A stretch of 30,812 nucleotides of DNA from Acanthaster planci (Eukaryota). This document shows, in pieces, positions 7,828-26,588 of the stretch. Position numbers and translations under genes: made by a program. The notes under the pieces are model-generated. The model was not told the origin of the DNA. It did not search any database and saw only the letters and a list, made by a program, of their open reading frames with translations. The stretch spans positions 2,996,815 through 3,027,626 of the forward strand of contig NW_019091366.1 in the NCBI RefSeq assembly GCF_001949145.1, in the 5' to 3' direction. The stretch's first letter is position 1. Each line of letters starts with the position of its first letter.

Positions 7828-10800
7828 CTGCAGTTGATGAAACCATCTACTGATGCTTGTTTACCTGAGATTATTTACAACTGCACTTGTAAACTCACTG
7901 GTTGTGGCATATCCACCCATGTCTTGTGTGCGTACCTTCAGTCAAGAAAAGACACAAAAGAAAAATAAGCATCTGCATGCAAATAAAACATAAAAATATA
8001 CTGCTTTTATGAAAGCAAAGTACTTGATATTAAAAAAATCAAAATTGGGAAAAATTCTTAGGGGTATCAAGGCAAAGAAATGAATGATGAAGGTAACTGC
8101 TCTAGCTTCTTTGAAATTTAAGGATTGGTACTGAAATTCATATCACAGTCAGGTGAGTACGAATTTGAAATTTAGTGTAAATTGCCCCAGAAATGAAGAT
8201 AATTTATAGACGTCAGAAGGTATTTCCATTCGCAATTGTCACTGAGCAATCTAAGTCTTGACTGAACTCACCTTGCCTGCACTGACAACTGACTCCACTG
8301 CTCTTTGAATGAGCTTGGCATACGAATCCATGCTGTAATTCAATAAAAAAGGGAAAGAGTTACAAAAGATAGTTTGTGGTTTATTGTTAAAATGGGTACA
8401 GGTGTTTGATATCTACATCGTTTATGTGTCTTGACCATGATGCCTCTATGTAAGGGGTCAGTAATAAACTAGATCTTAACGTGTCTCCATCGCCTATAAA
8501 CCATACAATTACACAATGCAACATCTAAGATTCTTAAAAGAAAACACTCATATAATGTAGCCATCAATTTCCTGTTTTTATTTCTACAGTTGAAAGAAGA
8601 TTTTGAAGTGTTTGTTGAGCCAAACTGTTTTTTCACTTTTGGGCATCCTTTGAAGCCATACTGATAAATGACTGATGAAAGAGTAAAATTCTACGGGCCA
8701 ACAGGATGAACGAGTAGACTCTACCAAGAGCCTCAGAAGATTAAAATGTCATTAATGATTTGGACAATACACTTACTGAAGATGTTTGAGCATGTTGGCA
8801 GCACAGAGAAACATAGCTGTAGGATTAGCAATGTTACGCCCCACAGCTTGTGAGAAGGTATGTCTAGCACCCTGACCAATCAAATAAAGAATTCCCATCA
8901 TGACTTTAAACAACTTGCCCAATCGACATACACATCCAAAATTTGAATTAACACTGACATGAAACAAAAGAAACATTGTCATTATGATCAAAGGCATGAA
9001 AATATATGTTTAAAATAAATTGAACACCATGAGAGGCATCTGAGACAAATCTAAAGAGCAATACACTTTCAGTGAAAGTTTTTATCACACAAAACGTAAA
9101 TTCTAGCAAATGTCTTCTGCTTGGTAAACTTTTGACTTCATTCTATTTTGTTTACATTGATATAATTTCCCATCAACTTACAGGCTCAAATATTGCAAAT
9201 TCCGTGGAGTAACTTTCTCCAGGAACCACCCCTGCTCCACCAACCAGCCCAGCCGCTAAGTTATCAACAATGTTGCCATAGAGGTTAGGGGTGACCAGCA
9301 CATCAAACTGATGAGGATTGGAAGCCAACTGCATGCAACAATTGTCAACAATCATAGACTCGAACTGGATCTTAGGGTACAAAGTTGAGATCTGGCGACA
9401 GCTTTCAAGAAAGAGACCATCCCCAAGTTTCCTAGAAAAGAAAACAGAATTTAATTGATATTGCAGGAATAGAAGTGACAACAGGGTAACCTGTGCAATG
9501 GATATTTAAGCATAACAAATAACTGGCTCGATCATAACATTTGTGTTTCACAAATATTTGTACCCGAAGGATAATAAAGCACTGTATGGTATCATCAATC
9601 TTAAACATTAGCCAATTAATTTTCTGATTGATCCGAGTTGCCTAGACATCACGATTTTCAAGCAGCCTAAGAGGATGGGCTATCATTAAGTCTATGCCTC
9701 GTCGGCTGTCAAACCTGATGCAGCGAAGCAAAAATGATAAAATCTGTCATCCAAGCGTGAAGAGTACTCACATTATATTTGCCTTGTGTACTGCAGTAAC
9801 TTTCTGACGATCATTTCTTCTGGCGTAATCAAAAGCAAACTTTGCAATCCGCATTGAGTTGGCTCTTGTAATAATCTTCAGGCATTCTACAACACCAGGA
9901 ACACTCTGATAGAAAAAAGAATCCATACGCCAGTACAAATAAATAATATCCACTCTTTTCAAACTTACGAAAGTGATCTCCGAGTCTCAATACATAAGGC
10001 ATACAGTCACATGATCATTGCAAACATAGACAATGCAGGATTACCTCATGTTCCAATGCACTATACTCTCCTTCTGTCTGTTCACGTATTACAACAAAAT
10101 CCAGACCAGTGTGTCTTGTCTTAATGCCCGGCAGAGTACGACACCTAACAACATTGGCAAATAGGTCCAATTCTCGTCTGTCAGGGAAAAATATTTTAGT
10201 CAAGTCATAAGATGTGTTTAATACAGTTATTAACAGAAAAGTTCCAGAGACGGCAATCAGTTGGTGCTTAATTAGCAAACAAATACACACTTTATGTGAT
10301 CAAACATCCTGAGCTTGCTACGAGCTCTTAGAAGAAACAACACATCCACAATCTAAATTCCTACATTTTCTATGGTTAATAATGGTTTGTGAAGACTCTG
10401 TACATACATTAAGCCATGGAATTTGGCCCTCGTTTTACCTAGCAGTTCTAAGTGCAAGTTTCAAATAGGAAAGGTACATGTACTCCCTCTGAGTGTTCAT
10501 AATTGTACATGTTCATTGGTGTTGTGATGTTTGACTTCAAGAGTTACCAAACCTGATTTTCATGTTGAGTGTCTGAAGCTCACCACCTCCTCCCCAGGGT
10601 GTGTGAATGATTCCCTTGAGGGCAACCTGGTTCCGCTTAAAGGAATCAATGACATCACCTACAGTGGCACTCTTCCCTACTTGTACCTCACTGCAGAAAG
10701 AAAAAATACATAATGACATCAACCAGTTCTAAGCAATATTGAAAATAAAACCTGCAATGTATAAATCATGAGTAATTTCCATTTTCAGTGCTATAAGTTG

Positions 10801-11699: not shown

Positions 11700-11800
11700 T
11701 TTGGGGAGTCAGGTTGGCGTAGTGATTCTTTCTCAACGCCTTCCATCTCTGCGGCCCGGGTTCGAATCCTGGCCCAGTCCACATGTGGATTGGTTTTCAG
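11700..11800 (+). mobile_element. tRNA-derived SINE-like fragment with a B-box/T-arm-like motif
   Basis: gcggcccgggttcgaatcctggcccag holds the canonical tRNA T-arm/B-box consensus GGTTCGAATCC. No complete cloverleaf can be folded, so a SINE head is more likely than a tRNA gene. Confidence 0.4.
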
Positions 11801-12038
11801 TCCCTACCTGATTCCGCGGGTTTTACCCAGAATATTCCTTTGGGGTTTTCCTCCTACCTCTAAAACTGTAACTGCTTCTCACTGTCTCCTCTCTACAGCC
11901 TCAGGTTTTTATTCAGGCTTGCGAGCTACAGTGCCTGGGGTGCTTTTGAGGAATTCTTGGTGTCATTACCAGTGGGAGTGGGACCACGATGCCTGCCACG
12001 ATAGTTACTACCACTGTACCAGTACCACTGCCATACCC

Positions 12039-12120
12039 CCAGAACTGTGGGGTCCAACGTACGTCCGCTCCACTTCTATGTTCATGGGAGCGCAGCGGGC
12101 GTCGGACCCCACAGTTCTGG
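12039..12120. repeat. Perfect 19-nt inverted repeat ccccagaactgtggggtcc / ggaccccacagttctgggg around a ~40 bp GC-rich spacer. The ccccagaactgggg motif recurs at 13305-13320.
   Basis: The reverse-complement identity is directly visible. Additional palindromes ccagtggcagtgccactgccatgcc lie in 11990-12170. Confidence 0.6.
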
Positions 12121-12708
12121 GGGGTAGGCCTACCAGTGGCAGTGCCACTGCCATGCCAGGGGGATGGGTAGAGTCAGTCTGCCACATAGCATTATGCGTT
12201 ATCACAATCAAAAGTAACAGGAAAGATAGACATACAAATACAAAAAGGAGGAAGTTAATTACTCACTTTTAAACCAGTCCTCGTTAATATTTTGCAAAAG
12301 AGGCTAGAATTCGCCATCAGTTTGATCCGTATTTCTTCACGGTCTAGTCTGAGTGACACAGTAGGCAATACACCAATGCAAGGTTCAGAACAGACTGGAC
12401 CCTCTAGATTCAACGTTTTAAATGTACATGTACTCCCAGATCCTTGAAATGATCGAAGAGGGAAACCAGACCGATGTTAACATGGCCCCTTTCACCATGC
12501 GCGCAATTTGTCGCCAGCTTTGCTGGAGTAGTATTTCAAGATCTCAGCTGATAATCTTACCGTTCATCTCTCTCAATAAAAGTGAGAATCACTTCCGACG
12601 GATGGCGAAGGTATTTAAACAATTAGATACTTGATCCATGGAGGAAGGAAAAAACATTGAGGACAAGCCTAGGTTCCCCATACAGCGGCGGACCCAGGAT
12701 TTTTCAAA

Positions 12709-12721
12709 AGGGGGGGGGGGT
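12709..12721. repeat. Poly-G homopolymer (12-13 nt)
   Basis: gggggggggggg. Paired downstream with C/G-rich aaaagggggtggggcgtgtaccctaccccccc (12890-12925). Confidence 0.5.
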
Positions 12722-12967
12722 GAACTGAAACCATGGAGGTAGTATGAAAAGTATCCACTCGGTTTGGGGATTGGAGCAATTTTGTATTCTAGGCACTCTG
12801 TGGTGCAATTTCAGATGGTATGACCCCTCTCTTTTCTTTGCTTGCCCTTTTCTTCCTTTTCATTTATTTATTTATTTATTTAATTTTTTGAAAAGGGGGT
12901 GGGGCGTGTACCCTACCCCCCCGATGATCTGCCCCTGTTCCCTGATTCTTTCCCATGACATACACTA

Positions 12968-13252
12968 GGCCTACCCATGGACGTATATAAAAAAAAGCAG
13001 GACTCGCAATGCCCTTAATCAGCTTATAGAGATCATTAAAACCACTAGCGGCCATTTTACCAAGCCGAATACAAATTAAGTTTGCCCAGCAATGCCCGCC
13101 TTTGTTCTCCCTGGCATCAATAGAAGCAAGCCAACCCACCCATTTGTATTCGGCTTGGTAAAAGGCCGCTGGTTGGCTTCTATTTCATGTATTTCATATA
13201 AAGGCGTTGCAAGTCCAGGGTTTTTTTTATATATGTCCGTGGGCCTACCCCC
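12968..13252. mobile_element. Foldback/MITE-like element. Outer inverted repeats ggcctacccatggacgtatataaaaaaaa ... ttttttttatatatgtccgtgggcctacc, and inner 35-nt inverted repeats (13043-13077 vs 13143-13177).
   Basis: ccactagcggccattttaccaagccgaatacaaat is the near-perfect reverse complement of atttgtattcggcttggtaaaaggccgctggttgg. The element has no coding capacity. Confidence 0.5.
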
Positions 13253-14134
13253 AGTCTGAGCCTAGTATTAAACTTGGACTACACTACCCCCGACGTCCGT
13301 CCTGCTACCCCCAGAACTGGGGAGTCCGCATCTGCCTCACGAGACATACACTATTTCCGATGATCGAAAGGGTACTGACTAACATTAGGCACATTAGGGG
13401 CATTAGGGTGTCGATGCTGTAAGTTTTGACAAAATTGTGCATCAAGAGAACAAGGAGAAACTTGCATGTACACGTACATGTAATTAGACTGGAGCTTATT
13501 GCTATGGGAGTTTTGAAGGCACGCACAGGTGTCACTCATTTTATTAGTGCAGCACCATGTGTTAGTTTTGTACAACCTCAATTGTAGGCCTATATAGGCC
13601 CTAATTATTTACAAAAATAAGTGAAGTTTAATTATTGTGTTGAAATATGTGAACATTGATGTTCTGAAGGTGCTTGGAAGTTTTAAATTAGTTCACTACC
13701 TAATTGAAAAAGGTGGATGTGACTGAAATTAACCAATCTTACAAGAAGTGGAGACTGTCATGACAAAGATGCTTGCACTTGATCATTTTCATCAGGCTCC
13801 TGTGATGTTAGGGAGCTCCATTTCCCATGGACACCGGGGGTTTTGCATTGGAACTGAACATCCAATCAGCCGTTATCCAGTCCCCAATCAAGAGGACTTA
13901 CCACAAGACATGCAAGATACCATTAACGAAGTTGCAGAGAGGGTAACAGGCTCAACAAATTCACTTTACATGTGCAAGGATCCCATTAAAACAAACTACT
14001 GTTAGCATTGTTCTCAGAGCAAGACTTGGATACAACCTGTCATCCGATCCATACAGAATTCTGTTGCCAGATGCCCCATTGTATTTTGCCTATTTCTGAT
14101 TTTAACGTTCTAAAGTGCACTCAACCAAGGGAAA

Positions 14135-14578
14135 ATGAAATCAACTCAAAGAATAAAAGTTTTGACAGGTGAAAGAATGGTACTGGAATGTTTTTCAAGG
14201 AAAAATGAGCAATTTAGGGGCAAACCTTTGAGCTTTATGTACATATATTTGCAAAAGAGTTGTTTGTGCATTGTTACTTATACTGAAAATGTGAATGATT
14301 TGGCTGAAATAGATTCATATATTTATGACTTTATTCATTGCTTTCAGAGTGGATTTGTTCCTAATGTCTTCAAAGCACTCTCCCACCGGCCAGATGAATT
14401 CCGAGCTTTTTTCAGGTATTATGATGTCATCATGGGAAAAGAAACAGGATCACTCACTAAAGCTGATAAAGAAATGATCGTTGTTGCTACCAGCTCAGTC
14501 AACAACTGCTTGTATTGCATCATATCTCACTCAGCACTGTTTAGGATCTACTCCAAGAATCGTATTCTAGCTGACCAG
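14135..14578 (+). CDS. Carboxymuconolactone decarboxylase (CMD)/AhpD-family 'peroxidase-related' protein, exon 1. Holds GFVPNVFKALSHRPDEFRAFF and the catalytic CxxC..H (NNCLYCIISH).
   Basis: Strong similarity to bacterial TIGR01926/PF02627 proteins (GxVPNxF, AL.H.P, E.E.I....S..N.C.YC..SH). ATG at 14135, with in-frame alternative ATGs at 14177 and 14237, so the true start is uncertain. Donor GACCAG|gtgagg at 14578. Confidence 0.75.
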
Positions 14579-15296
14579 GTGAGGAACATCTATGGGCAAA
14601 TTTGATCAAGGACCTCTTGTTAACTAGTGGTTGGTTTGTGCATCATGTACAGTGAAGTTGAATTATGAATGACCCCAGTCCAACGTTGTTAGGTCATTAG
14701 GTCGAAGGGGACAAGAGGTGGCCTGAGGAAGTGCAGAATAGCAAAAAGAAAAGTGAAAAGGGTCGTTTCTCTCTGCACTGTGCTATTGAAAATGGTTCAT
14801 GTCAACCAACGATGCGATCAACCTTGACAGGCTGGTCGTGAATAGTTGACTAGACTTGTACAACCGTTGTTCACTAATGTGCATTCCATCAGAGTTAGTG
14901 GAACTATGATTAACTATGATAATTGATCGAAGTGACCCTGTAGTTACGATTCATTTGAAAATGTCCAATGTCATTCAGACGTGCATGCAATTTGAGGTCT
15001 GTCCTACCAGTGCACCCTACACAAACTCGCATGTGTGCTTTGTTCCCAAATGACTTCACTGTTTGAAATACCAGACTGGTTCACTGAAGTAGGTTTCACA
15101 ATGCATTTTACACCTGTAAATGCTATTTAAAAATGTGCACTTAAGAATATAGCATTTAAGTAAGGATTATTAAAGTGGGTCTTGAGACTAATACTACAAA
15201 TGTGAAAAGTTAATGCCGTGTTGTACATGTTCATGGAATGCATTTCCTTGCAAAGTTTGACAAAAGAGGTATTTTATGATATCTCCACATCTTCAG

Positions 15297-15560
15297 ATTG
15301 CAGCCAATTGGGAATGTGCTGAATTGGACTCCCGACAACGAGTGATTGTGGAGTTTGCCATTGCTGTCTGCAAGTCTGAGACTATCACAGAAGAACACTT
15401 TAAGAAACTAGAAGCACACGGCTTGGACCGTGAAGATGCTTGGGACATTGGTGCTATTGCTTCTTTGTTTGCATTGTCAAATCGAATGGCTCATCTTACA
15501 GATATGAGACCAAATAAAGAGTTTTATTTAATGGGAAGGGTGCCCAAAGAGAAAAAGTAG
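15297..15560 (+). CDS. CMD/AhpD-family protein, exon 2 (IAANWECAELDSRQRVIVEFAIAVCKSETITEEHFKKLEAHGLDREDAWDIGAIASLFALSNRMAHLTDMRPNKEFYLMGRVPKEKK*)
   Basis: Acceptor ctccacatcttcag at 15296, phase 0 with exon 1. Matches the C-terminal half of the bacterial peroxidase-related enzyme family (L.FA.KLT....I...D...L...G..D..I.D...V.A.FN..NR...). Confidence 0.75.
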   Translation: MAANWECAELDSRQRVIVEFAIAVCKSETITEEHFKKLEAHGLDREDAWDIGAIASLFALSNRMAHLTDMRPNKEFYLMGRVPKEKK

Positions 15561-19959: not shown

Positions 19960-20500
19960 CTTTTAACATTCCACGTAGTGGAATTCGGCATAGATGTGTT
20001 CATCATCTTGGCAACGTATCGTTGTCTTTGAACCTTCAGAATCGAACTTTACAGCCTGACAACTTGAGCAGAGTTGTGCCGTTTCGTGGGCGTCGCGCGC
20101 TTGCACTGCAGGTGGCTCTATGTTGTGGCGTGGTGAAGGTACGAGGGTCGTTGCTAGACGTGGTCCGTGTACCTCATTATGCGGTTGTTAGGGGATAGAT
20201 TGCACAGCTAGGAGCATGACATTTGATAGGCAAATGAGGTTGACACGGTGTGTGTAATGAGCACGCCGCTGTGCGGTGGCAGTCGAGGATGGGATATGAT
20301 GCTGCTAGTTGTAAATGATGATGACCAGCTTTGGCGAGCGAGTAAATGAGAAGCTTTCCGTTCTCTCCTGTAGCCGACATGACTTCCATCATGGATGCAG
20401 TGGTGTGACCCGATTCTGTCTGCTTCTGATGATCAATGAAGCAAGACAATTTCGATCGTGTTGTGAGAATTACTTGTAACAAAGAATTTTTGCTAGTGAT
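19960..20500. promoter_or_regulatory. CpG-rich putative promoter/5'UTR region upstream of the TRPV-like gene, possibly bidirectional with the FAM166-like gene
   Basis: CG dinucleotides are locally enriched (ggcgtcgcgcgcttgcactgcagg, acgagggtcgttgctagacgtggtccgtg, gcacgccgctgtgcggtggcagtcgagg) in an otherwise CpG-poor window. Sits just 5' of the first ATG of the TRPV-like gene (20512). Confidence 0.4.
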
Positions 20501-20511
20501 CAGGACACAAA

Positions 20512-20872
20512 ATGAAGGAGGATGTGAAGTATGGAAATGACAGTCAAACCAATGTTTGCATGGAAATCTATGAGCTGTATGAGGATCTTGTTGATTTGGC
20601 AAGGGAGGCCAGCAAGTCACGCGTTTCACAGGCGGCATTTGAGGATAAGATACGCGGGAGCGATGTCAGCAAATTCCTGTATGATGATGGAAGTGGGAAA
20701 ATGACATCAATTAAAGCACTAGTGAAAATCAGAAACCAGGATAACTGGATCAATAATGATGTTGTTGATGCTAGAGATCAAAAGAAGAAGAGACGACCGA
20801 TTGCGAAGTTGAAGAAAACCATGGTGACTGGATCATCATTAGGGAGTGCTAACAAGATTAAATCTGAACAGG
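20512..20872 (+). CDS. TRPV-like putative exon 1 ([15 protein letters not shown]...[20 protein letters not shown]). Variable N-terminal region.
   Basis: ATG at 20512 right after the CpG-rich block. The donor CAGG|gtgaat at 20872 is in phase 1 with the acceptor ttttcctcag|AG at 21329, giving ..[25 protein letters not shown]. This region of TRPVs is poorly conserved, so the exon is not homology-confirmed. Confidence 0.5.
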
Positions 20873-23800
20873 GTGAATGAAGTTGAAAATATTCAGTAAA
20901 TTTTACTTAAAAAGTAGACTGCTCTTATCAATGATATCACCATATAAGAATAGTAATGATGGTGGGGATGGTGGTAATATGCTAAATGGTGATATGGAGC
21001 TGATGCTTGATTTGTACGTGTAGAGTACGTTGTAATGATGGAGGGTGATGAGACTGATAATGATAGAGAATTTTGATAACGGGGATGATTACAATGATGA
21101 TGACCGTGGTTGTATTGAGGATGGTAATTATGAGAAATACAATTTATTTCACAGTACTTAATAGTGCAGTTGAATAAAATGGACAAATTGAGAAATAATG
21201 AAGCCAAGTAAAGAATAAAATTGAGTAAGCCTCAATAGGTTTTAAGATGAATGTTGTTGACATAGGAACAAAAGTTATGTTCTTGAGGACATGCTAATTA
21301 TTGATCTGTGCAATTCTGTTTTCCTCAGAGGCCCAGCGAGAAGTTTGCTGGGACATTGACAGACGTGGTTATTCTGGAGAGACCTTACTCCATGTTTGCT
21401 TCATGAGTCCCCACAATAAAGATGTTAACTTTGAGATTGCCAAACAACTCATAAAAGCATGGCCAAAGATGATAAATGACTTCATCCTAGGAACTGAAAA
21501 CTATGGTAAGTATGATACGTTTGCATCATGCAATACCAAATTCTACCTCAAGGAGGTCTTTTCATCTCTATAATCTCAGAACCTTGACTCTACTGGGCTA
21601 GCTGTCTGTAGTTGGCTTTTAATCCAATTATGGTGATCAACTGTATTTACATGTAGGTGCTTTGTTAGCTGCACTTTCTCAGTTATCGGTGAAATATTTT
21701 GATAAATGCGTATAAAAGAAAGCAACTCCATTATTATTCCCCAACTCCTCCCCCTAACAAAAAGTCAGGGTCAGACCTATGACTACTGCACTTACAAAAA
21801 GAGTTTTGTTTTCAGGTGATGAACCAGTTACAAGAATTTATGTTTTTTACACTTTCTTGAACATTTCAGGTGAAACATGTTTACATAAAGCTATTGTAAA
21901 TGAGAACATCAGTATGATCAAGTTCCTGATTGAGAATGGAGCTGACTTGAATGTTCATTGTTATGGAAGGTTCTTCAGGCCAGATGACCAGAAGGCTTGG
22001 TGTGAGGACTCACTTAACCATGAACACTTCATTTTGTACAAAAAGACAAACTATGAAGGGTGAGTATACAAATATTAATAAATATCAAGCAAGATGGGAG
22101 AAATTTGTGTTGGATGGCATTGTTGAGGTTTTTGAGTGCATCTTTGAAAAGGACAGTTGTGACATTTTCAGGCAATTCAAGAGTTTGCATTTTACTTTAA
22201 AGCTTGTCAGAGCTGTTTAAACTGCAGGGATACAAATAAAAGAGAATGTAGCAATGGCAAAACCTTTTGGATGCAGTAAAGAATATTTAATTGTAAGAGT
22301 GGTCATGAGGCAATCCATTGAGTTCAGTAAGACTAACAGGTAAGAAATGACATATTTTGAAATTATTGTGACTATTCCTAAGACTTACATAGTGTAATTT
22401 TTCCTAGACTCACCTACTGGGGAGAAACACCACTGACGTTTGCAGCTTGTCTGGATTTAGATCACATTTTCCGTTCTTTGTGGGTGAAGGGGTGTGATAT
22501 CAATGCTCAAGACACTAATGGGAACACTGTACTTCATATGATGGTTTTACATGATAAGAAGGTAAGTCTTTTTGACAACAGCAACTAATTCTATTTTAGT
22601 GTCACATCTTAATGTTTTGACTTGGTTCCAAACTTCAGCCTTCTGTATTATCCTTGTTCAAATTTTACTTTTATGCTGACATGCATGTCAATGACCAAAG
22701 GATTTTCTGTTTTATCATGTTCTTTGATAGTCTTCAAGGATATTTGTCAGGGGATTAAAAAACATATGATTGCATTCCCAGAGAGATATATATATTTGGT
22801 TATTATGTGAACTTTTTTTTTGCTCAGGATATGTTCACTTTGGCATATGAGTTGGGTGGTGACTGCACCATCAAGAACAATCAAGGGTACACTCCTTTGT
22901 CTCTGGCTGCCAAGCTACATAGGATAGACCTCTTTGAGCATATTTTGTTCTTAGAACGTCAACTCTCATGGAAGTATGGCGATGTTACTTGTGCATCATA
23001 TGCTCTGGATGGCTTAGACAGTATTAACTATGATGGTACCATCAATAATAAATCATCACTGCATCTCATTGTAAACCAAGTAAGTTGTATTTAGTGTTGA
23101 TTCAGAAGAACAAAAGGGCATGCAAGGTTTGAACATTGCCCACCGGCATGTAAAATGTGCATCGGCTGTGTGTTTGCTCAAGAAGAATAGAACATGGAGA
23201 TGGCAACCTGTACTGCAGGTTTTACAGAGGGAGGCATACAGTAGTTGACAATCTCTACCACAATTTTTTTTATATTGATTTTACTGGAATTATATCTTAA
23301 GAGTATAGAATTTCTAAAAGTAGTTTGTCATTCTGACTTGTCTCCTAGATTACTTCAACTGAGGAATTCATGTGTTACACTGTATTTATTAAAAAGATAA
23401 AATTCAATTTTGACCTGAATTCCCTCTAATACCTTGTCACTTTTTGCAGACAAGCAAGGAACATCTTCAGATGTTGAAAGGTGTCATCTACAAGCTGTTG
23501 GATGAGAAATGGAAGACATTTGGTCGTTTCAATTTCTTTGCTCGCCTAGCATTCTTTCTTCTGTACCTAGCTGTACTCACAACTGCATTCTATCTCAGGC
23601 CGGGAAAGGTAAACATTAAAAACAACCTCCATCCAAACAATGTATTTCAAATTTGAAATGTTTGCAAGTTGTTTAAAAGGAATTCACATTATTTTCTCTA
23701 CGTATTTTAAGTTTTCAATAATTTGTTGACATGTTCTACTTTTCTCAATGTCCCTTTCATCAATTTTCTGTCCTGCAGGACCCTAAAGCATTCACAGTAC

Positions 23801-26588
23801 ACAACAATGTTACTCTACCTAATGGCTCAGTGATTGACGCAGGAACAGAAGTTATTGAGCCATGCTACTTGCTGTATACAGACACATCAACAGATCAGGT
23901 AACTTCTATTTTGCAGTACACGATTACATCAACACGGAAAAATGCACTCAGTTATTATTCAGCTTTGACAAGAGTAAGAACAGGTTTATGCTCCTTTCTT
24001 CATCACAGGCACGTGTGGTTTTTGAAATCATCACCTTGATTGGATCATTAAGTTATCTTTTCTTTGCTGCGAAGGAGACATACCACCTTGGAAAGTGGTC
24101 TTTCATGGAACTTATGGTAATTCTTGTGTTTCTAGCTGGTTTTTTTATTTGTTTGTGGCTTAGGAAATTATTATTAACATTATGAAATTAATAGTTGTAC
24201 AATAGGAAATAGTTTTGACAGTTTTCATCTTGAACTACAGGTTTTAGCCCCAGCCAAAGCGATGTTCCTACTGTCATGTTGTTTTATCATCTTGGCATGT
24301 TTTGGCCGTATCCCTCCATGCAATCCATACTACGAAGATGTCTTCATCACATTTGCCATTTTGACTGCTTGCCCCTATTCACTGTTTTTCCTGAGGTAAA
24401 TCATGGCTCCTTTTATGTCTGACTGCTGAGTCGTTTGAAAGATCAGTTAATGAATATGAGTGCTTATTGTATGCCATGTCTCCTGACAAACATGTTGACA
24501 TTATCCATTGTCAATGGAAATAATAGCTGTATAATTTTGCAACCTTTTTTAAAAAGATGAAGATAAAAAACATTTAATAGGAGAGGTCACGACTCAAAAG
24601 ATGGCAGACAGGCAACTGCTTATTATAAAATATTGAATAAGCCCAAACCTATTATCCCCTTGTAATTGTTTGTTTTGTTGCATTTATAACTTTATAGAGC
24701 CCTGAAGCTTGTGGGTCCATTCATCTTCATGATCTACAAAATGATTCATGGTGATCTTCTCAAATTCCTCGCCATTTATCTCATCTTCCTGTTTGGTTTC
24801 TCCCAAGGTAAAAGATCAAACCAATTGTGTTAGGAAGCTTTAATCTCAGAATACTTCGAACATTCTTTGATGAAAGTGGATTGTTAAATGAATGCTTAAC
24901 TTCACGGTAGTCTTGTTCTTCCATTTTCTTTTTAGCTATGCATATAGTATTCCTTGGCTACAGGGGGGAGTTTGAGCTATTGGATTCAGTTATTGGAATG
25001 TTTGTAATGTCCCTGGGTGAGTTTGGTGATATTTATGCCACGTTTGATGAAACAAGATATCCAGTAATGGGAAAGGTATGTGTGAATTCTATGAATATAC
25101 TTTTACTTCATCTGTGCCTCCACATGAATAAATGATTTCAATTTGTTACTGGGAATGGAATTCAATTCTCATTTTGGCGCAACTTTTGAATATAATTTTT
25201 GTATTTTGGATTGTTTTAGATCATTTGCAAAAAGAACAAAGCTTAAACTACATCTGCATTTGTTATGTAAAGTAAATATTAAAAAAACGACTAAAATATA
25301 TTAAGATTAAGACTTTGTCTCTCCCTCTTACTTCTGTCTCAGTTGATTTAACTTTAAAATCTAGTTCTGTTTTAAGTTTTGTGTTTTCTGGTGTCCATCC
25401 TTCCTTAGCTTGTATCAAATCTTCCTTTTCTGTTAATGGTTTCTTAATCATCATACAAGGTGTGTGTACATGACTGTATAGAAATTCACTTTATCCAATA
25501 TTTTTATCTGCATTCATTCTGCTTACGTGGTTACCTCTGTTTCACCATCACACAACTATTCTACTTAACGCAGTACTTTTTTCCTCCCTAAATCTCATCC
25601 TAAGTAAATGCAAACAGCATGTTATGTTTTACTGATTGTAGTCATGTGGGCAAATTGCCTCATTTTTTCCCTGTATTTTTCCTGCATAGTTGCTGTTCTG
25701 TGTGTACATGGTCCTAGTGGCACTACTTCTAGTCAACATGCTGATTGCTATGATGGGGAGTACGTTTAGTACAATAGCCGAGACAGAGAATGAATGGCAG
25801 AGACAGGTATTAAAATGCCAAGTTGATAGACTACAACTTGAGTTTAATGGTAAAATCATGTAATTGTTGAGGAGTCTGCAGCCACAGTTTGGAAGCGAGT
25901 GGGTAATATGTACATTTGTATTCAGTTTTAGAGTGAAGAGGAATAGCTGGATATTTTGGAAAATCTTTTGCAAAAATTAAGCCAAATTATTTCAGTTTAT
26001 TCAGAAATTGAACCAGGATATTAAAGTTGAAGGTAAAGAACTGAATTACCAATTAGTCAATTTATGCCAGGCGTGTCCTATAGGGTTTGCAGATATTGCT
26101 AATAAAATGTCAGTTTGCATTTTATTGATGTTCTCAGGATTCAATTCATTTCAGTGGGCCAAGATTGTCCTCATATTAGAGCAGTCATTGTCACCAGCTG
26201 TCAGAGTCAGTGTGCTACACAAGTATTCAACACCAATGTGGGATGGCAGGCAAGACCGAGCTATGATCATGCAAACAGAGAATGAGGTTGGTCCGAGTAA
26301 AAAAACTTTCTTACATAGTTTTGATTCCACAATGTACTACGCTTACATTGTCAAGTCAGGGTTGCTTGACGTTTTTATCTGTTGCTGACAAAGTTTCTCA
26401 AGAATGTTGTCAAACTGATTTCCTTCATTTTTCTTGCTTGTGATCATTTAATCTTTTCCATCTTGAAAAATAGTCTCTATTTTCTATTGTTACAGGACCA
26501 TGACGATGCAACCATACAGAAGTCTAAACATCGCCACAATGTCAATTCTAATCGCGAGTTCATTGATGGTGTATGGCAATCGACATAA
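20512..26588 (+). CDS. TRPV-family cation channel with about 14 coding exons: a variable N-terminus, ankyrin repeat domain, S1-S6 with pore loop, and TRP box
   Basis: Spliced product includes GETLLHVCF...[272 protein letters not shown] and [11 protein letters not shown]. These are colinear with vertebrate TRPV1-6 (YxGETPLxFAAC, NTVLH, LLxxKWxxFG, LFxFxxG.., NMLIAxMG). Confidence 0.9.
20930..21160. repeat. Low-complexity (GATGRT/GGTGAT)-rich degenerate minisatellite in TRPV intron 1
   Basis: gatggtggggatggtggtaat...ggtgatatgg...gatgatggagggtgatgag...gatgattacaatgatgatgacc. This produces the spurious His/Tyr-rich minus-strand ORF 20893-21207. Confidence 0.6.
21329..21505 (+). CDS. TRPV-like exon 2 (ankyrin repeat 1)
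   Basis: Acceptor ttttcctcag and donor TATG followed by gtaagt. Confidence 0.85.
21870..22059 (+). CDS. TRPV-like exon 3 ([13 protein letters not shown]...[32 protein letters not shown])
   Basis: Acceptor catttcag and donor AAGG followed by gtgagt. The finger loop is longer than in vertebrate TRPVs. Confidence 0.8.
22408..22561 (+). CDS. TRPV-like exon 4 ([51 protein letters not shown])
   Basis: Acceptor tttttcctag and donor AAG followed by gtaagt. Confidence 0.9.
22828..23079 (+). CDS. TRPV-like exon 5 ([40 protein letters not shown]...LHLIVNQ)
   Basis: Acceptor tttttttttgctcag and donor CAA followed by gtaagt. Confidence 0.9.
23450..23608 (+). CDS. TRPV-like exon 6 (pre-S1 and S1: [53 protein letters not shown])
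   Basis: Acceptor ctttttgcag and donor AAG followed by gtaaac. Confidence 0.9.
23779..23898 (+). CDS. TRPV-like exon 7 (S1-S2 extracellular loop)
   Basis: Acceptor tgtcctgcag and donor CAG followed by gtaact. Has N-glycosylation-type NVT/NGS sites. Confidence 0.75.
24009..24116 (+). CDS. TRPV-like exon 8 (S2)
   Basis: Acceptor cttcatcacag and donor ATG followed by gtaatt. Confidence 0.85.
24241..24395 (+). CDS. TRPV-like exon 9 (S3-S4)
   Basis: Acceptor tgaactacag and donor TGAG followed by gtaaat. Confidence 0.8.
24698..24807 (+). CDS. TRPV-like exon 10 (S4-S5 linker and S5: [36 protein letters not shown])
   Basis: Acceptor aactttatag and donor CAAG followed by gtaaaa. Confidence 0.9.
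24936..25075 (+). CDS. TRPV-like exon 11 (pore helix and selectivity-filter region)
   Basis: Acceptor ttctttttag and donor AAG followed by gtatgt. Confidence 0.85.
25690..25806 (+). CDS. TRPV-like exon 12 (S6 and TRP box)
   Basis: Acceptor tttcctgcatag and donor CAG followed by gtatta. Holds NMLIAMMG and WQRQ. Confidence 0.9.
26155..26286 (+). CDS. TRPV-like exon 13 (post-TRP domain)
   Basis: Acceptor attcatttcag. The donor GAG|gttggt is weak, so the 3' boundary is uncertain. Confidence 0.6.
26495..26588 (+). CDS. TRPV-like putative terminal exon ([30 protein letters not shown])
   Basis: Acceptor ttctattgttacag, in phase with the previous exon. This is a short, basic C-terminus. More C-terminal exons cannot be excluded. 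Confidence 0.45.

Follow-up and report, generated by a model that had tools for sequence, protein, structure and literature searches.

Genes of bacterial type that lie among animal genes may be recent acquisitions, old residents or contaminants. This question is raised by a locus of the starfish Acanthaster planci, which is located in a stretch of 30,812 nucleotides (contig NW_019091366.1 of assembly GCF_001949145.1, positions 2,996,815 to 3,027,626) that is referred to here as the window. A first-pass annotation, made from the letters alone, had described between window positions 14135 and 15560 a two-exon gene for a CMD/AhpD protein of a bacterial peroxidase-related family, and had proposed it as a candidate for horizontal gene transfer. 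In RefSeq, the locus is already modeled as LOC110973825, with the label "uncharacterized protein." The comparisons described below indicate that it is probably the A. planci ortholog of an old, single-origin, pan-metazoan gene for a single-domain, AhpD-like CMD protein of the TIGR01926 type.

Distribution and shared structure of the animal gene

We examined the best 120 sequence matches to the starfish protein, and statements about taxa refer to the named entries among them. All of these named matches are animals, which represent at least six phyla and have identities of 58% to about 87%. They comprise asteroids, crinoids, echinoids, a holothurian, hemichordates, amphioxus, a tunicate, corals and an anemone, as well as Lingula, a chiton, gastropods, bivalves, a chimaera, many ray-finned fishes, amphibians and birds. 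The zebrafish ortholog is named si:ch211-175m2.5. No mammal is present among the best 120 matches, and no search aimed at mammals was made. The protein evolves slowly, as the starfish and coral sequences are 66% identical.

Intron positions were compared in 12 species (Acanthaster, Patiria, Asterias, Lytechinus, Ptychodera, Branchiostoma, Chanos, Lingula, Liolophura, Mya, Montipora and Actinia) by exact spliced alignment of protein to locus or, for Mya and Actinia, from the boundaries of tblastn segments. The phase 0 intron at EK/SGF, which is intron 2 of the Acanthaster gene (slashes within sequences mark splice junctions), occupies the same alignment column in all 12. The phase 0 intron that follows ADQ and precedes VA or IA (Acanthaster intron 3) is present in 11 of the 12, and is missing only in Actinia. 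A phase 1 intron within the Gly codon of ..ETG/N.. is common to Chanos (locus L005), Lingula (L006), Liolophura (L088) and Mya (L091), and is absent from the echinoderms, the hemichordate, amphioxus and the cnidarians. This pattern suggests an old bilaterian intron that was lost in several deuterostome lines.

The animal proteins also share a deletion. The CxxCxxxH motif and the xWD[IV] helix are 63 residues apart in 114 of the 115 animal sequences in which the distance could be measured, and 64 residues apart in each of 194 bacterial sequences. In protist homologs this spacing is 64-80; they do not have the animal deletion, and carry insertions of their own instead. In addition, 113 of 118 animal proteins have an N-terminal extension of at least 25 amino acids before the conserved core, which in bacterial open reading frames (ORFs) begins a median of eight residues from the start. 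Because these features are common to phyla, at least two introns, the one-residue deletion and the extension are judged from the alignments to predate the cnidarian-bilaterian split.

In view of these observations, it is very improbable that the starfish, or the echinoderms, acquired a CMD gene from bacteria recently or within their own lineage. Bacteria have very many members of the family. The initial expectation that the closest relatives are bacterial is correct among non-animals, in that proteobacterial proteins, mostly from Burkholderiales, are 51-60% identical to the starfish protein. It does not hold overall, because the named entries in the best 120 matches are all animals. The same annotation had specified that best matches to a widespread animal protein family would speak against its proposal, and such a family is what the search returned. 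Orthologs with 58-88% identity are present in other echinoderms, hemichordates, amphioxus, a tunicate, vertebrates, molluscs, a brachiopod and cnidarians, with intron positions, the indel and a linkage to IDH3 genes that are common to phyla, and the gene has a host-like GC content at third codon positions (GC3).

Linkage with IDH3 genes

Both neighbors that had been proposed initially were found: the CMD gene is flanked by an IDH3-type gene and, on its opposite side, by a CIMIP2/SPMIP5-type gene. The IDH3-type gene encodes a beta/gamma-type subunit of mitochondrial NAD-isocitrate dehydrogenase, and an internal exon (10045-10179) matches human IDH3B best (E=2e-16), followed by IDH3G (6e-15) and IDH3A (8e-9). 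This gene and the CMD gene are divergent, and the interval between their start codons (Table 1) is a putative bidirectional promoter shared by both genes.

Head-to-head pairs of IDH3 and CMD genes recur in other animals: the coding starts are 123 bp apart in Patiria, 407 bp in Branchiostoma and ~3.2 kb in Ptychodera, and the annotated gene ranges abut in the bivalve Mya. The chiton Liolophura has IDH3 4 kb downstream of the CMD gene in tandem orientation, and the anemone Actinia carries an IDH3-like gene ~4-8 kb upstream, with an Arf gene between. Judged by these gene maps, a linkage that recurs across four phyla cannot be attributed to chance, and it argues for long residence in animal genomes. 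The arrangement looks like a very old conserved gene pair, and suggests that the two genes are co-regulated.

In the independent assembly of Patiria miniata, the gene order is that of the window: Iso_dh (- strand), CMD (+), a CMI2B-like/SPMIP5 gene (-) and an Ank-Ion_trans channel gene (+). This synteny, together with introns and a host-like GC3, bears out the initial view that the locus is an integrated, intron-bearing nuclear gene and not contamination. The coding sequence has 44% GC and 44% GC3 in a window of 38% GC, and the genes for bacterial homologs have medians of 64% GC and 88% GC3. Bacterial contamination or a chimeric contig, to which the bacterial type of the protein family lends some color and nothing further does, is a practically negligible explanation. 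It would have to accommodate three GT-AG spliceosomal introns, a GC3 of 44% as compared with 88% in bacterial genes, the order of IDH3, CMD, CIMIP2-like and Ank-TRP channel genes repeated in the Patiria assembly, and a head-to-head IDH3 neighbor in four other species that add three more phyla.

Family, fold and active site

Assignment of the protein to the CMD/AhpD superfamily with similarity to TIGR01926, and the profile check against PF02627 that had been proposed with it, both hold above cut-off. The Pfam model of the carboxymuconolactone decarboxylase (CMD) family (PF02627) matches with 41.1 bits (cut-off, 23; E=1.8e-10) and passes the gathering threshold, and the NCBIfam model TIGR01926, "peroxidase-related," matches over its full length with 181-182 bits (cut-off, 81.8; E=8.6e-54). 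The motifs SGFVPNVF, HRPDEFRAF, DKEMIVVATSSVN and NNCLYCIISH, which had been cited in favor of this assignment, are all present in the translation.

The active-site residues E92, C104, Y106, C107 and H111 are invariant in an alignment of 29 sequences from animals, bacteria and protists. The proton relay of Pseudomonas aeruginosa PA0269 consists of Glu36/Cys48/Tyr50/Cys51/His55, and that of Mycobacterium tuberculosis AhpD consists of Glu118/Cys130/His132/Cys133/His137 (PMC3141380). The starfish residues have the same spacing as in both proteins, with Glu 12 positions upstream and His four positions downstream. The two active-site Cys codons are located at 14507-14509 and 14516-14518. A selenoprotein reading of the CxxC pair (TGA), which was considered after a weak match to NF041238, was rejected because both codons are TGC.

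The starfish protein has one domain of ~190 residues. An AlphaFold2 model, built from the 29-sequence alignment, is all-helical with a pLDDT confidence score of 91. In Foldseek searches, this model aligns with 2PRR with a TM score of 0.96-0.97, a root mean square deviation of ~1 Å and 56-57% identity, and with 6K40 (Deinococcus radiodurans DR1765), 3C1L, 2PFX and 2OYO with TM scores of 0.89-0.94. Weaker matches are to S. pneumoniae AhpD, SMU.961, Bmp8, PA0269, Sestrin2 and M. tuberculosis AhpD.

Comparison with characterized relatives

The best solved relative by sequence is 2PRR, a structural genomics entry for YP_296737.1 of Ralstonia eutropha JMP134 described as [quoted passage not shown] It aligns over the full length with 56-57% identity (E=1.7e-70). 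This protein and its proteobacterial, mostly Burkholderiales, orthologs share with the starfish protein the CLYC..H motif and the C-terminal MRPN-EF-LMGRVPK tail. They differ from it in the lack of a targeting extension and of introns, in a spacing from active site to WDI helix that is one residue longer, and in a GC3 of 88%.

The nearest relative for which genetic data are available is DR1765 (6K40), which has a TIGR01926-type architecture, a CxxC pair, a TM score of 0.93 and E=1.6e-29. However, this protein is bacterial and only 29% identical. The same helix-hairpin active site, with its Glu...Cys-x-x-Cys...His relay, is present in M. tuberculosis AhpD (1KNC/1GU9) and PA0269 (2O4D/2IJC). PA0269 shares the Cys-x-Tyr-Cys form, but lacks the extra N- and C-terminal helices and is 17% identical. 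M. tuberculosis AhpD has another topology, is a trimer, and is matched by Foldseek with E of about 0.3-0.75 and 10-13% identity. Its partners AhpC, SucB and Lpd are features known for the bacterial protein. No M. tuberculosis-type AhpD equivalog model is among the NCBIfam matches, and the starfish protein is not a canonical AhpD of that type.

Sestrins (PF04636), the animal proteins for which an AhpD fold was already known, have the same AhpD-like helical superfold (Foldseek TM score of ~0.5 and E=0.24 to human Sestrin2). They differ in that they are fused two-domain proteins, have no CxxC relay of this form and, according to a recent Sestrin review, target GATOR2/mTORC1. Because the starfish protein has no match to Pfam PA26 (PF04636), Sestrins are not orthologous to it. 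The review treats the AhpD-like ancestry of Sestrins with no mention of an animal CMD family, and no paper on an animal CMD/AhpD family or on the zebrafish gene name was found in the searchable literature.

PcaC (EC 4.1.1.44), the namesake enzyme, belongs to the same Pfam clan and family (PF02627). In contrast to it, the starfish protein has a redox CxxC signature and no context of a beta-ketoadipate pathway, its neighbors being IDH3 and a ciliary gene. The NCBIfam scan produced no PcaC-specific model at E<=0.01, and the protein does not qualify as PcaC.

Gene model and start codons

The corrected gene model has four coding exons (Table 1), whose spliced product is identical to RefSeq XP_022080651 (100% identity over 100% of length). 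Exact spliced mapping places three introns, all GT-AG and all phase 0. Exon 1 was located by similarity to the N-terminus of the Patiria protein and was then confirmed by this mapping. Exon 2, whose product is identical to that of the RefSeq proteins, ends in HPISRYPVPNQEDLPQDMQDTINEVAER, the conserved N-terminal segment of the family. It is needed because only with it does the match to TIGR01926 become full-length: the corrected model covers positions 1-178 of 178 (181-182 bits), versus 15-178 (165 bits) for the model proposed initially.

That two-exon model stood in part. Its intron, GACCAG/gtgagg to cttcag/ATT in phase 0, was confirmed by sequence and by spliced mapping, as was its last exon, which ends in TAG. 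However, its first exon was made to begin at 14135, where an ATG and 71 codons lie within what is intron 2, and both upstream coding exons were missed. The correct boundary is a strong acceptor, tttcag/AGT (cattgctttcag/AGT), at 14347/14348, immediately 5' of SGFVPNVF, and the 71 intronic codons from the ATG (MKSTQRIK...HCFQ) match nothing. The product had been estimated at ~200 amino acids; the proposed coordinates give 235, of which 164 residues are truly coding.

Table 1. Coordinates of the CMD gene and associated features in the window, with related loci and sequences.
Feature	Position	Strand	Description
IDH3 beta/gamma-type first coding exon	12267..12317	-	MANSSLFCKILTRTGLK/gtgagt; Patiria ortholog begins MMASSLFCKIMPRGLK
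Interval between divergent start codons	12318..12481	.	164 bp; putative shared bidirectional promoter and 5' untranslated region
CMD coding exon 1	12482..12610	+	MAPFTMRAICRQLCWSS...HFRRMAK, N-terminal extension; donor AAG/gtattt; spliced mapping
Intron 1	12611..13795	+	1185 nt, phase 0; contains nested palindromic element (~12974-13243) resembling a miniature inverted-repeat transposable element (MITE)
CMD coding exon 2	13796..13942	+	APVMLGSS...HPISRYPVPNQEDLPQDMQDTINEVAER; encodes ISRYPVPNQEDLPQDMQDTINEVAER; start of TIGR01926 core; acceptor tcatcag/GCT, donor AGG/gtaaca
Intron 2	13943..14347	+	405 nt, phase 0; holds false start codon 14135 of first-pass annotation
CMD coding exon 3	14348..14578	+	SGFVPNVF...ILADQ; catalytic helix hairpin; Pfam CMD and TIGR00778 AhpD core matches
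Active-site signature	14471..14530	+	Glu-x11-Cys-Leu-Tyr-Cys-x3-His; E92, C104, Y106, C107, H111 (XP_022080651 numbering)
Intron 3	14579..15296	+	718 nt, phase 0; GACCAG/gtgagg...cttcag/ATT
CMD coding exon 4	15297..15560	+	IAANWECAELD...MRPNKEFYLMGRVPKEKK, then TAG stop (15558-15560)
IDH3-CMD pair loci	12267-12482 (window); L001 9877-10001; L003 9593-10001; L087; L091; L088; L089 2206-6145
Protist-type TIGR01926 sequences	P0139, P0307-P0309, P0149, P0404 (Reticulomyxa filosa)		Own N-terminal extensions and insertions

RefSeq isoforms X1, X2 and X3 are all recovered with the corrected exons. Isoform X1 (276 amino acids) equals the 256-amino-acid model plus 20 residues, the acidic peptide MYMYSQILEMIEEGNQTDVN (12422-12481), which are added by an in-frame ATG at 12422, 60 nt upstream. 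Isoform X3 (210 amino acids) begins at the ATG at 13805. In isoform X2 a lone Met is spliced to exon 2 (M/APVMLG), and this N-terminus points to a possible alternative first exon within intron 1 that ends with ATG/gtatga (12815-12817). The ATG at 12482 is probably the ancestral start and the annotated start at 12422 probably lies too far upstream, because the sequence just 5' of 12482 (GGAAACCAGACC..AACATGGC) and that ATG itself are conserved in Patiria, whereas the ATG at 12422 is not.

Relation to bacterial and protist homologs

A scan of one genome per bacterial or archaeal species, with an alignment as query, detected at least 597 bacterial loci with homologs. The best 80 are almost all from Burkholderiales and other Pseudomonadota, and are 51-60% identical to the starfish protein. 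Their genera include Ralstonia, Cupriavidus, Paraburkholderia, Caballeronia and Rubrivivax, and one locus each belongs to Sphingomonadaceae and Myxococcota. When ORFs around bacterial homologs were called in search of operon partners, a procedure that yields many spurious high-GC ORFs, no consistent neighbor was found; an ABC exporter gene is upstream in two loci and a LysR-type gene is present in one. An exhaustive search of representative sequences gave 2727 clusters at E<=1e-3, of which a few are eukaryote-like with N-terminal extensions.

A search with one of these sequences (P0139) revealed a small protist clade, comprising one EukProt entry and marine contigs, and the foraminiferan Reticulomyxa was also matched. 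After members of its own clade, the next-best matches to P0139 are bacterial (those that are named belong to Gammaproteobacteria or Burkholderiales) and not animal. The protist clade may represent an independent acquisition.

We calculated a neighbor-joining tree of 78 taxa and 193 columns with 500 bootstraps, after removal of one distant "outgroup" and of a frameshifted sequence. Animals, together with a divergent mollusc copy, form a group in 60% of bootstraps and protists in 100%, and animals plus protists are united in 2.8%. The deletion and the introns that the animal genes have in common also speak for a single animal clade. Mean identities are 63% among animals, 56% between animals and proteobacteria, 45% between animals and protists, 51% between protists and bacteria, and 37% between animals and distant TIGR01926 proteins. 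The divergent sequence P0128, which had been suspected to come from a non-animal eukaryote, proved to be a fast-evolving copy of mollusc type, whose nearest named relative is Saccostrea (52%).

The data are best described by an animal gene that falls within one bacterial subgroup and has no special kinship to the other eukaryotic copies. This placement favors an ancient transfer from a bacterium to a eukaryote, in the animal stem or somewhat earlier, to which we assign a likelihood a little better than even. A bacterial origin is plausible, and the transfer, if any, would predate the cnidarian-bilaterian ancestor. A proteobacterial gene would have entered the animal stem lineage or an earlier ancestor, and would subsequently have become fully domesticated as it acquired introns, a targeting peptide and the base composition of its host.

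A somewhat unlikely alternative is that no transfer into animals took place. The gene would then have been inherited vertically since the last eukaryotic common ancestor, with the mitochondrial endosymbiont as one possible source; it would have been lost many times, and strong constraint alone would explain its similarity to bacteria. The product looks mitochondrial and evolves slowly (66% between starfish and coral), Reticulomyxa and the protist clade with its EukProt entry also hold TIGR01926 genes with N-terminal extensions, and one homolog from the alphaproteobacterial Sphingomonadaceae is as close (58%) as those of Burkholderiales. Vertical descent fits poorly, however, with animals that are nearer to proteobacteria (56%) than to protists (45%), and with protists that are nearer to bacteria (51%). 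Animals and protists group together in only 2.8% of bootstraps, protists have their own insertions and not the animal deletion, the next matches of the protist query are bacterial and not animal, and the eukaryotic distribution is patchy in the present data. The preferred reading is still that of an ancient transfer followed by long residence in animals.

Possible function

The exon 1 extension of Acanthaster is basic and almost free of acidic residues, like that of 113 of 118 animal orthologs. Animal extensions have a median of 48 amino acids with seven Lys or Arg and two Asp or Glu, and 94% have at most one acidic residue within the first 25. A motif R-x-[FYLMIC]-[STAC] is found near the end of the extension in 61% of animal orthologs, the example in Acanthaster being HRGF/C (here the slash marks the processing position). 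A basic, acid-poor composition with a processing site of the R-3 type is typical of mitochondrial presequences, and by composition the animal extension looks like one.

We propose that the extension, at whose end an R-x-[F/Y]-[S/C/T]-like site is often present, would direct import of the protein into mitochondria, and that the CxxC pair would work there as a thiol-disulfide oxidoreductase or a weak hydroperoxide reductase. Electron flow might resemble that in bacterial AhpD: lipoamide-carrying enzymes, a thioredoxin-type system or another dithiol donor would supply the electrons, and a peroxiredoxin, or peroxides themselves, would receive them. Divergent transcription from the compact bidirectional promoter would co-regulate the CMD gene with IDH3. 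Taken together, the active-site signature and the extension suggest that the protein is likely a mitochondrial CxxC thiol-disulfide or hydroperoxide reductase.

Data on bacterial relatives are consistent with this proposal. Knockout of DR1765 causes sensitivity to H2O2, and full complementation requires the CxxC cysteines (PMC8945050). In mycobacteria, AhpD reduces AhpC and is itself recharged with NADH by enzymes that carry lipoamide; redox partners of AhpD are known only for M. tuberculosis and C. glutamicum (PMC8945050). The H2O2-reducing activity of PA0269 is weak (PMC3141380).

A different small-molecule enzyme, such as a PcaC-like decarboxylase or a thiol-dependent dehalogenase like Bmp8, is a decidedly unlikely alternative to a reductase. 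The CMD superfamily is functionally diverse, no substrate is known for a 2PRR-type protein, PA0269 has only weak peroxidase activity, and the debrominase Bmp8 is a detectable relative (E=1.8e-5; TM score of ~0.67-0.75). However, the complete AhpD proton-relay signature is invariant, no PcaC model was detected at E<=0.01, and the nearest characterized relative, DR1765, protects against H2O2 in a CxxC-dependent manner. A reductase is the function that we continue to favor.

Several observations weigh against the overall interpretation. No IDH3 gene is located within 10 kb of the CMD gene in Asterias, Lytechinus, Chanos, Lingula or Montipora. Monophyly of the animal sequences is supported by only ~60% of bootstraps, a neighbor-joining analysis of 193 columns is weak for deep nodes, and the tree resolves no bacterial sister group or donor of the animal gene. 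The animals sampled reach down to the cnidarians, and any entry into eukaryotes is placed only as earlier than the cnidarian-bilaterian split. The related fold also supports non-peroxidase chemistry (debromination by Bmp8 and decarboxylation by PcaC). The argument for mitochondrial targeting is drawn from composition only. The upstream ATG of RefSeq X1 would give an acidic N-terminus of 20 residues, and isoforms X2 and X3 are without most of the extension.

A broader proposal, which we consider speculative and unlikely as a whole, is that most animals, with mammals apparently excepted, keep a bacterium-derived mitochondrial CxxC reductase of AhpD type whose gene was already coupled physically to IDH3 when protostomes and deuterostomes diverged and has stayed so, in many cases by a bidirectional promoter of ~100-400 bp. 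Lipoamide and NADH from dehydrogenases of the tricarboxylic acid cycle would then feed mitochondrial peroxide detoxification in the mycobacterial manner. If this proposal is true, it would reveal an unrecognized antioxidant pathway of animals.

As a candidate for horizontal transfer the locus is ordinary, and as a conserved, presequence-bearing animal member of the known TIGR01926 family it is of moderate interest. It provides a useful negative example, in that, for a pan-metazoan gene, a bacterial-looking family and the presence of introns are no evidence of recent transfer. The lasting interest lies in a gene highly conserved from corals to birds and uncharacterized in the searchable literature, whose product is ~56% identical to proteobacterial enzymes and combines an intact AhpD redox relay with a presequence-like extension, and whose linkage with IDH3 is one of the older conserved gene-pair linkages. 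If the proposed role is true, the protein would be a new part of animal mitochondrial redox biology that mammalian-centered catalogs would overlook, and its gene would also be a clean case of an ancient, fully domesticated acquisition between domains of life.

Other features of the locus and of related copies

A scan of the window with Rfam found nothing. The nested palindrome in intron 1 of the CMD gene has outer arms at 12974-12996 and 13221-13243 and inner arms at 13055-13076 and 13142-13163, and looks like a small MITE. Intron 1 of the IDH3-type gene holds a separate 24-nt hairpin (12036-12123), whose arm sequence also occurs at 13306-13328. In the same IDH3 intron, a Pro-, Gly-, Ser- and Thr-rich open frame of 160 codons (11790-12272, + strand) overlaps these hairpin repeats; it probably derives from repeats and does not represent a gene.

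Downstream of the CMD gene, a gene with ankyrin repeats and a TRP-like ion-transport domain (GETLLH..) occupies ~20500-26000 on the + strand. A family with Ank, Ion_trans and YVC1_C domains flanks the CMD gene in Patiria (L001, 20460-23895), and is found on the opposite, upstream side in Liolophura (L088, 1-4793).

Additional copies of the CMD gene or of its parts are present in several animals. Montipora foliosa has two tandem CMD genes (L004, 1-5633 and 10001-15896) that encode 226 and 229 amino acids, and a second Patiria copy (P0026, LOC119742814), divergent at its C-terminus, is located on another scaffold. In Mya arenaria, the intron that follows ADQ contains several tandem copies of the 3' part of the exon that ends in ADQ, each with its donor (KCLYCIIAHSALHRIYSKQPELADQ/gtgagg; L091, 15174-15694). 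The ortholog of the duck Aix galericulata (P0114) is named "DDB1- and CUL4-associated factor 10," and in a fish locus the gene is followed by a WD40 gene (L005, 14998-19334). These two cases hint that vertebrate copies adjoin DCAF10, and are sometimes mis-merged with it.

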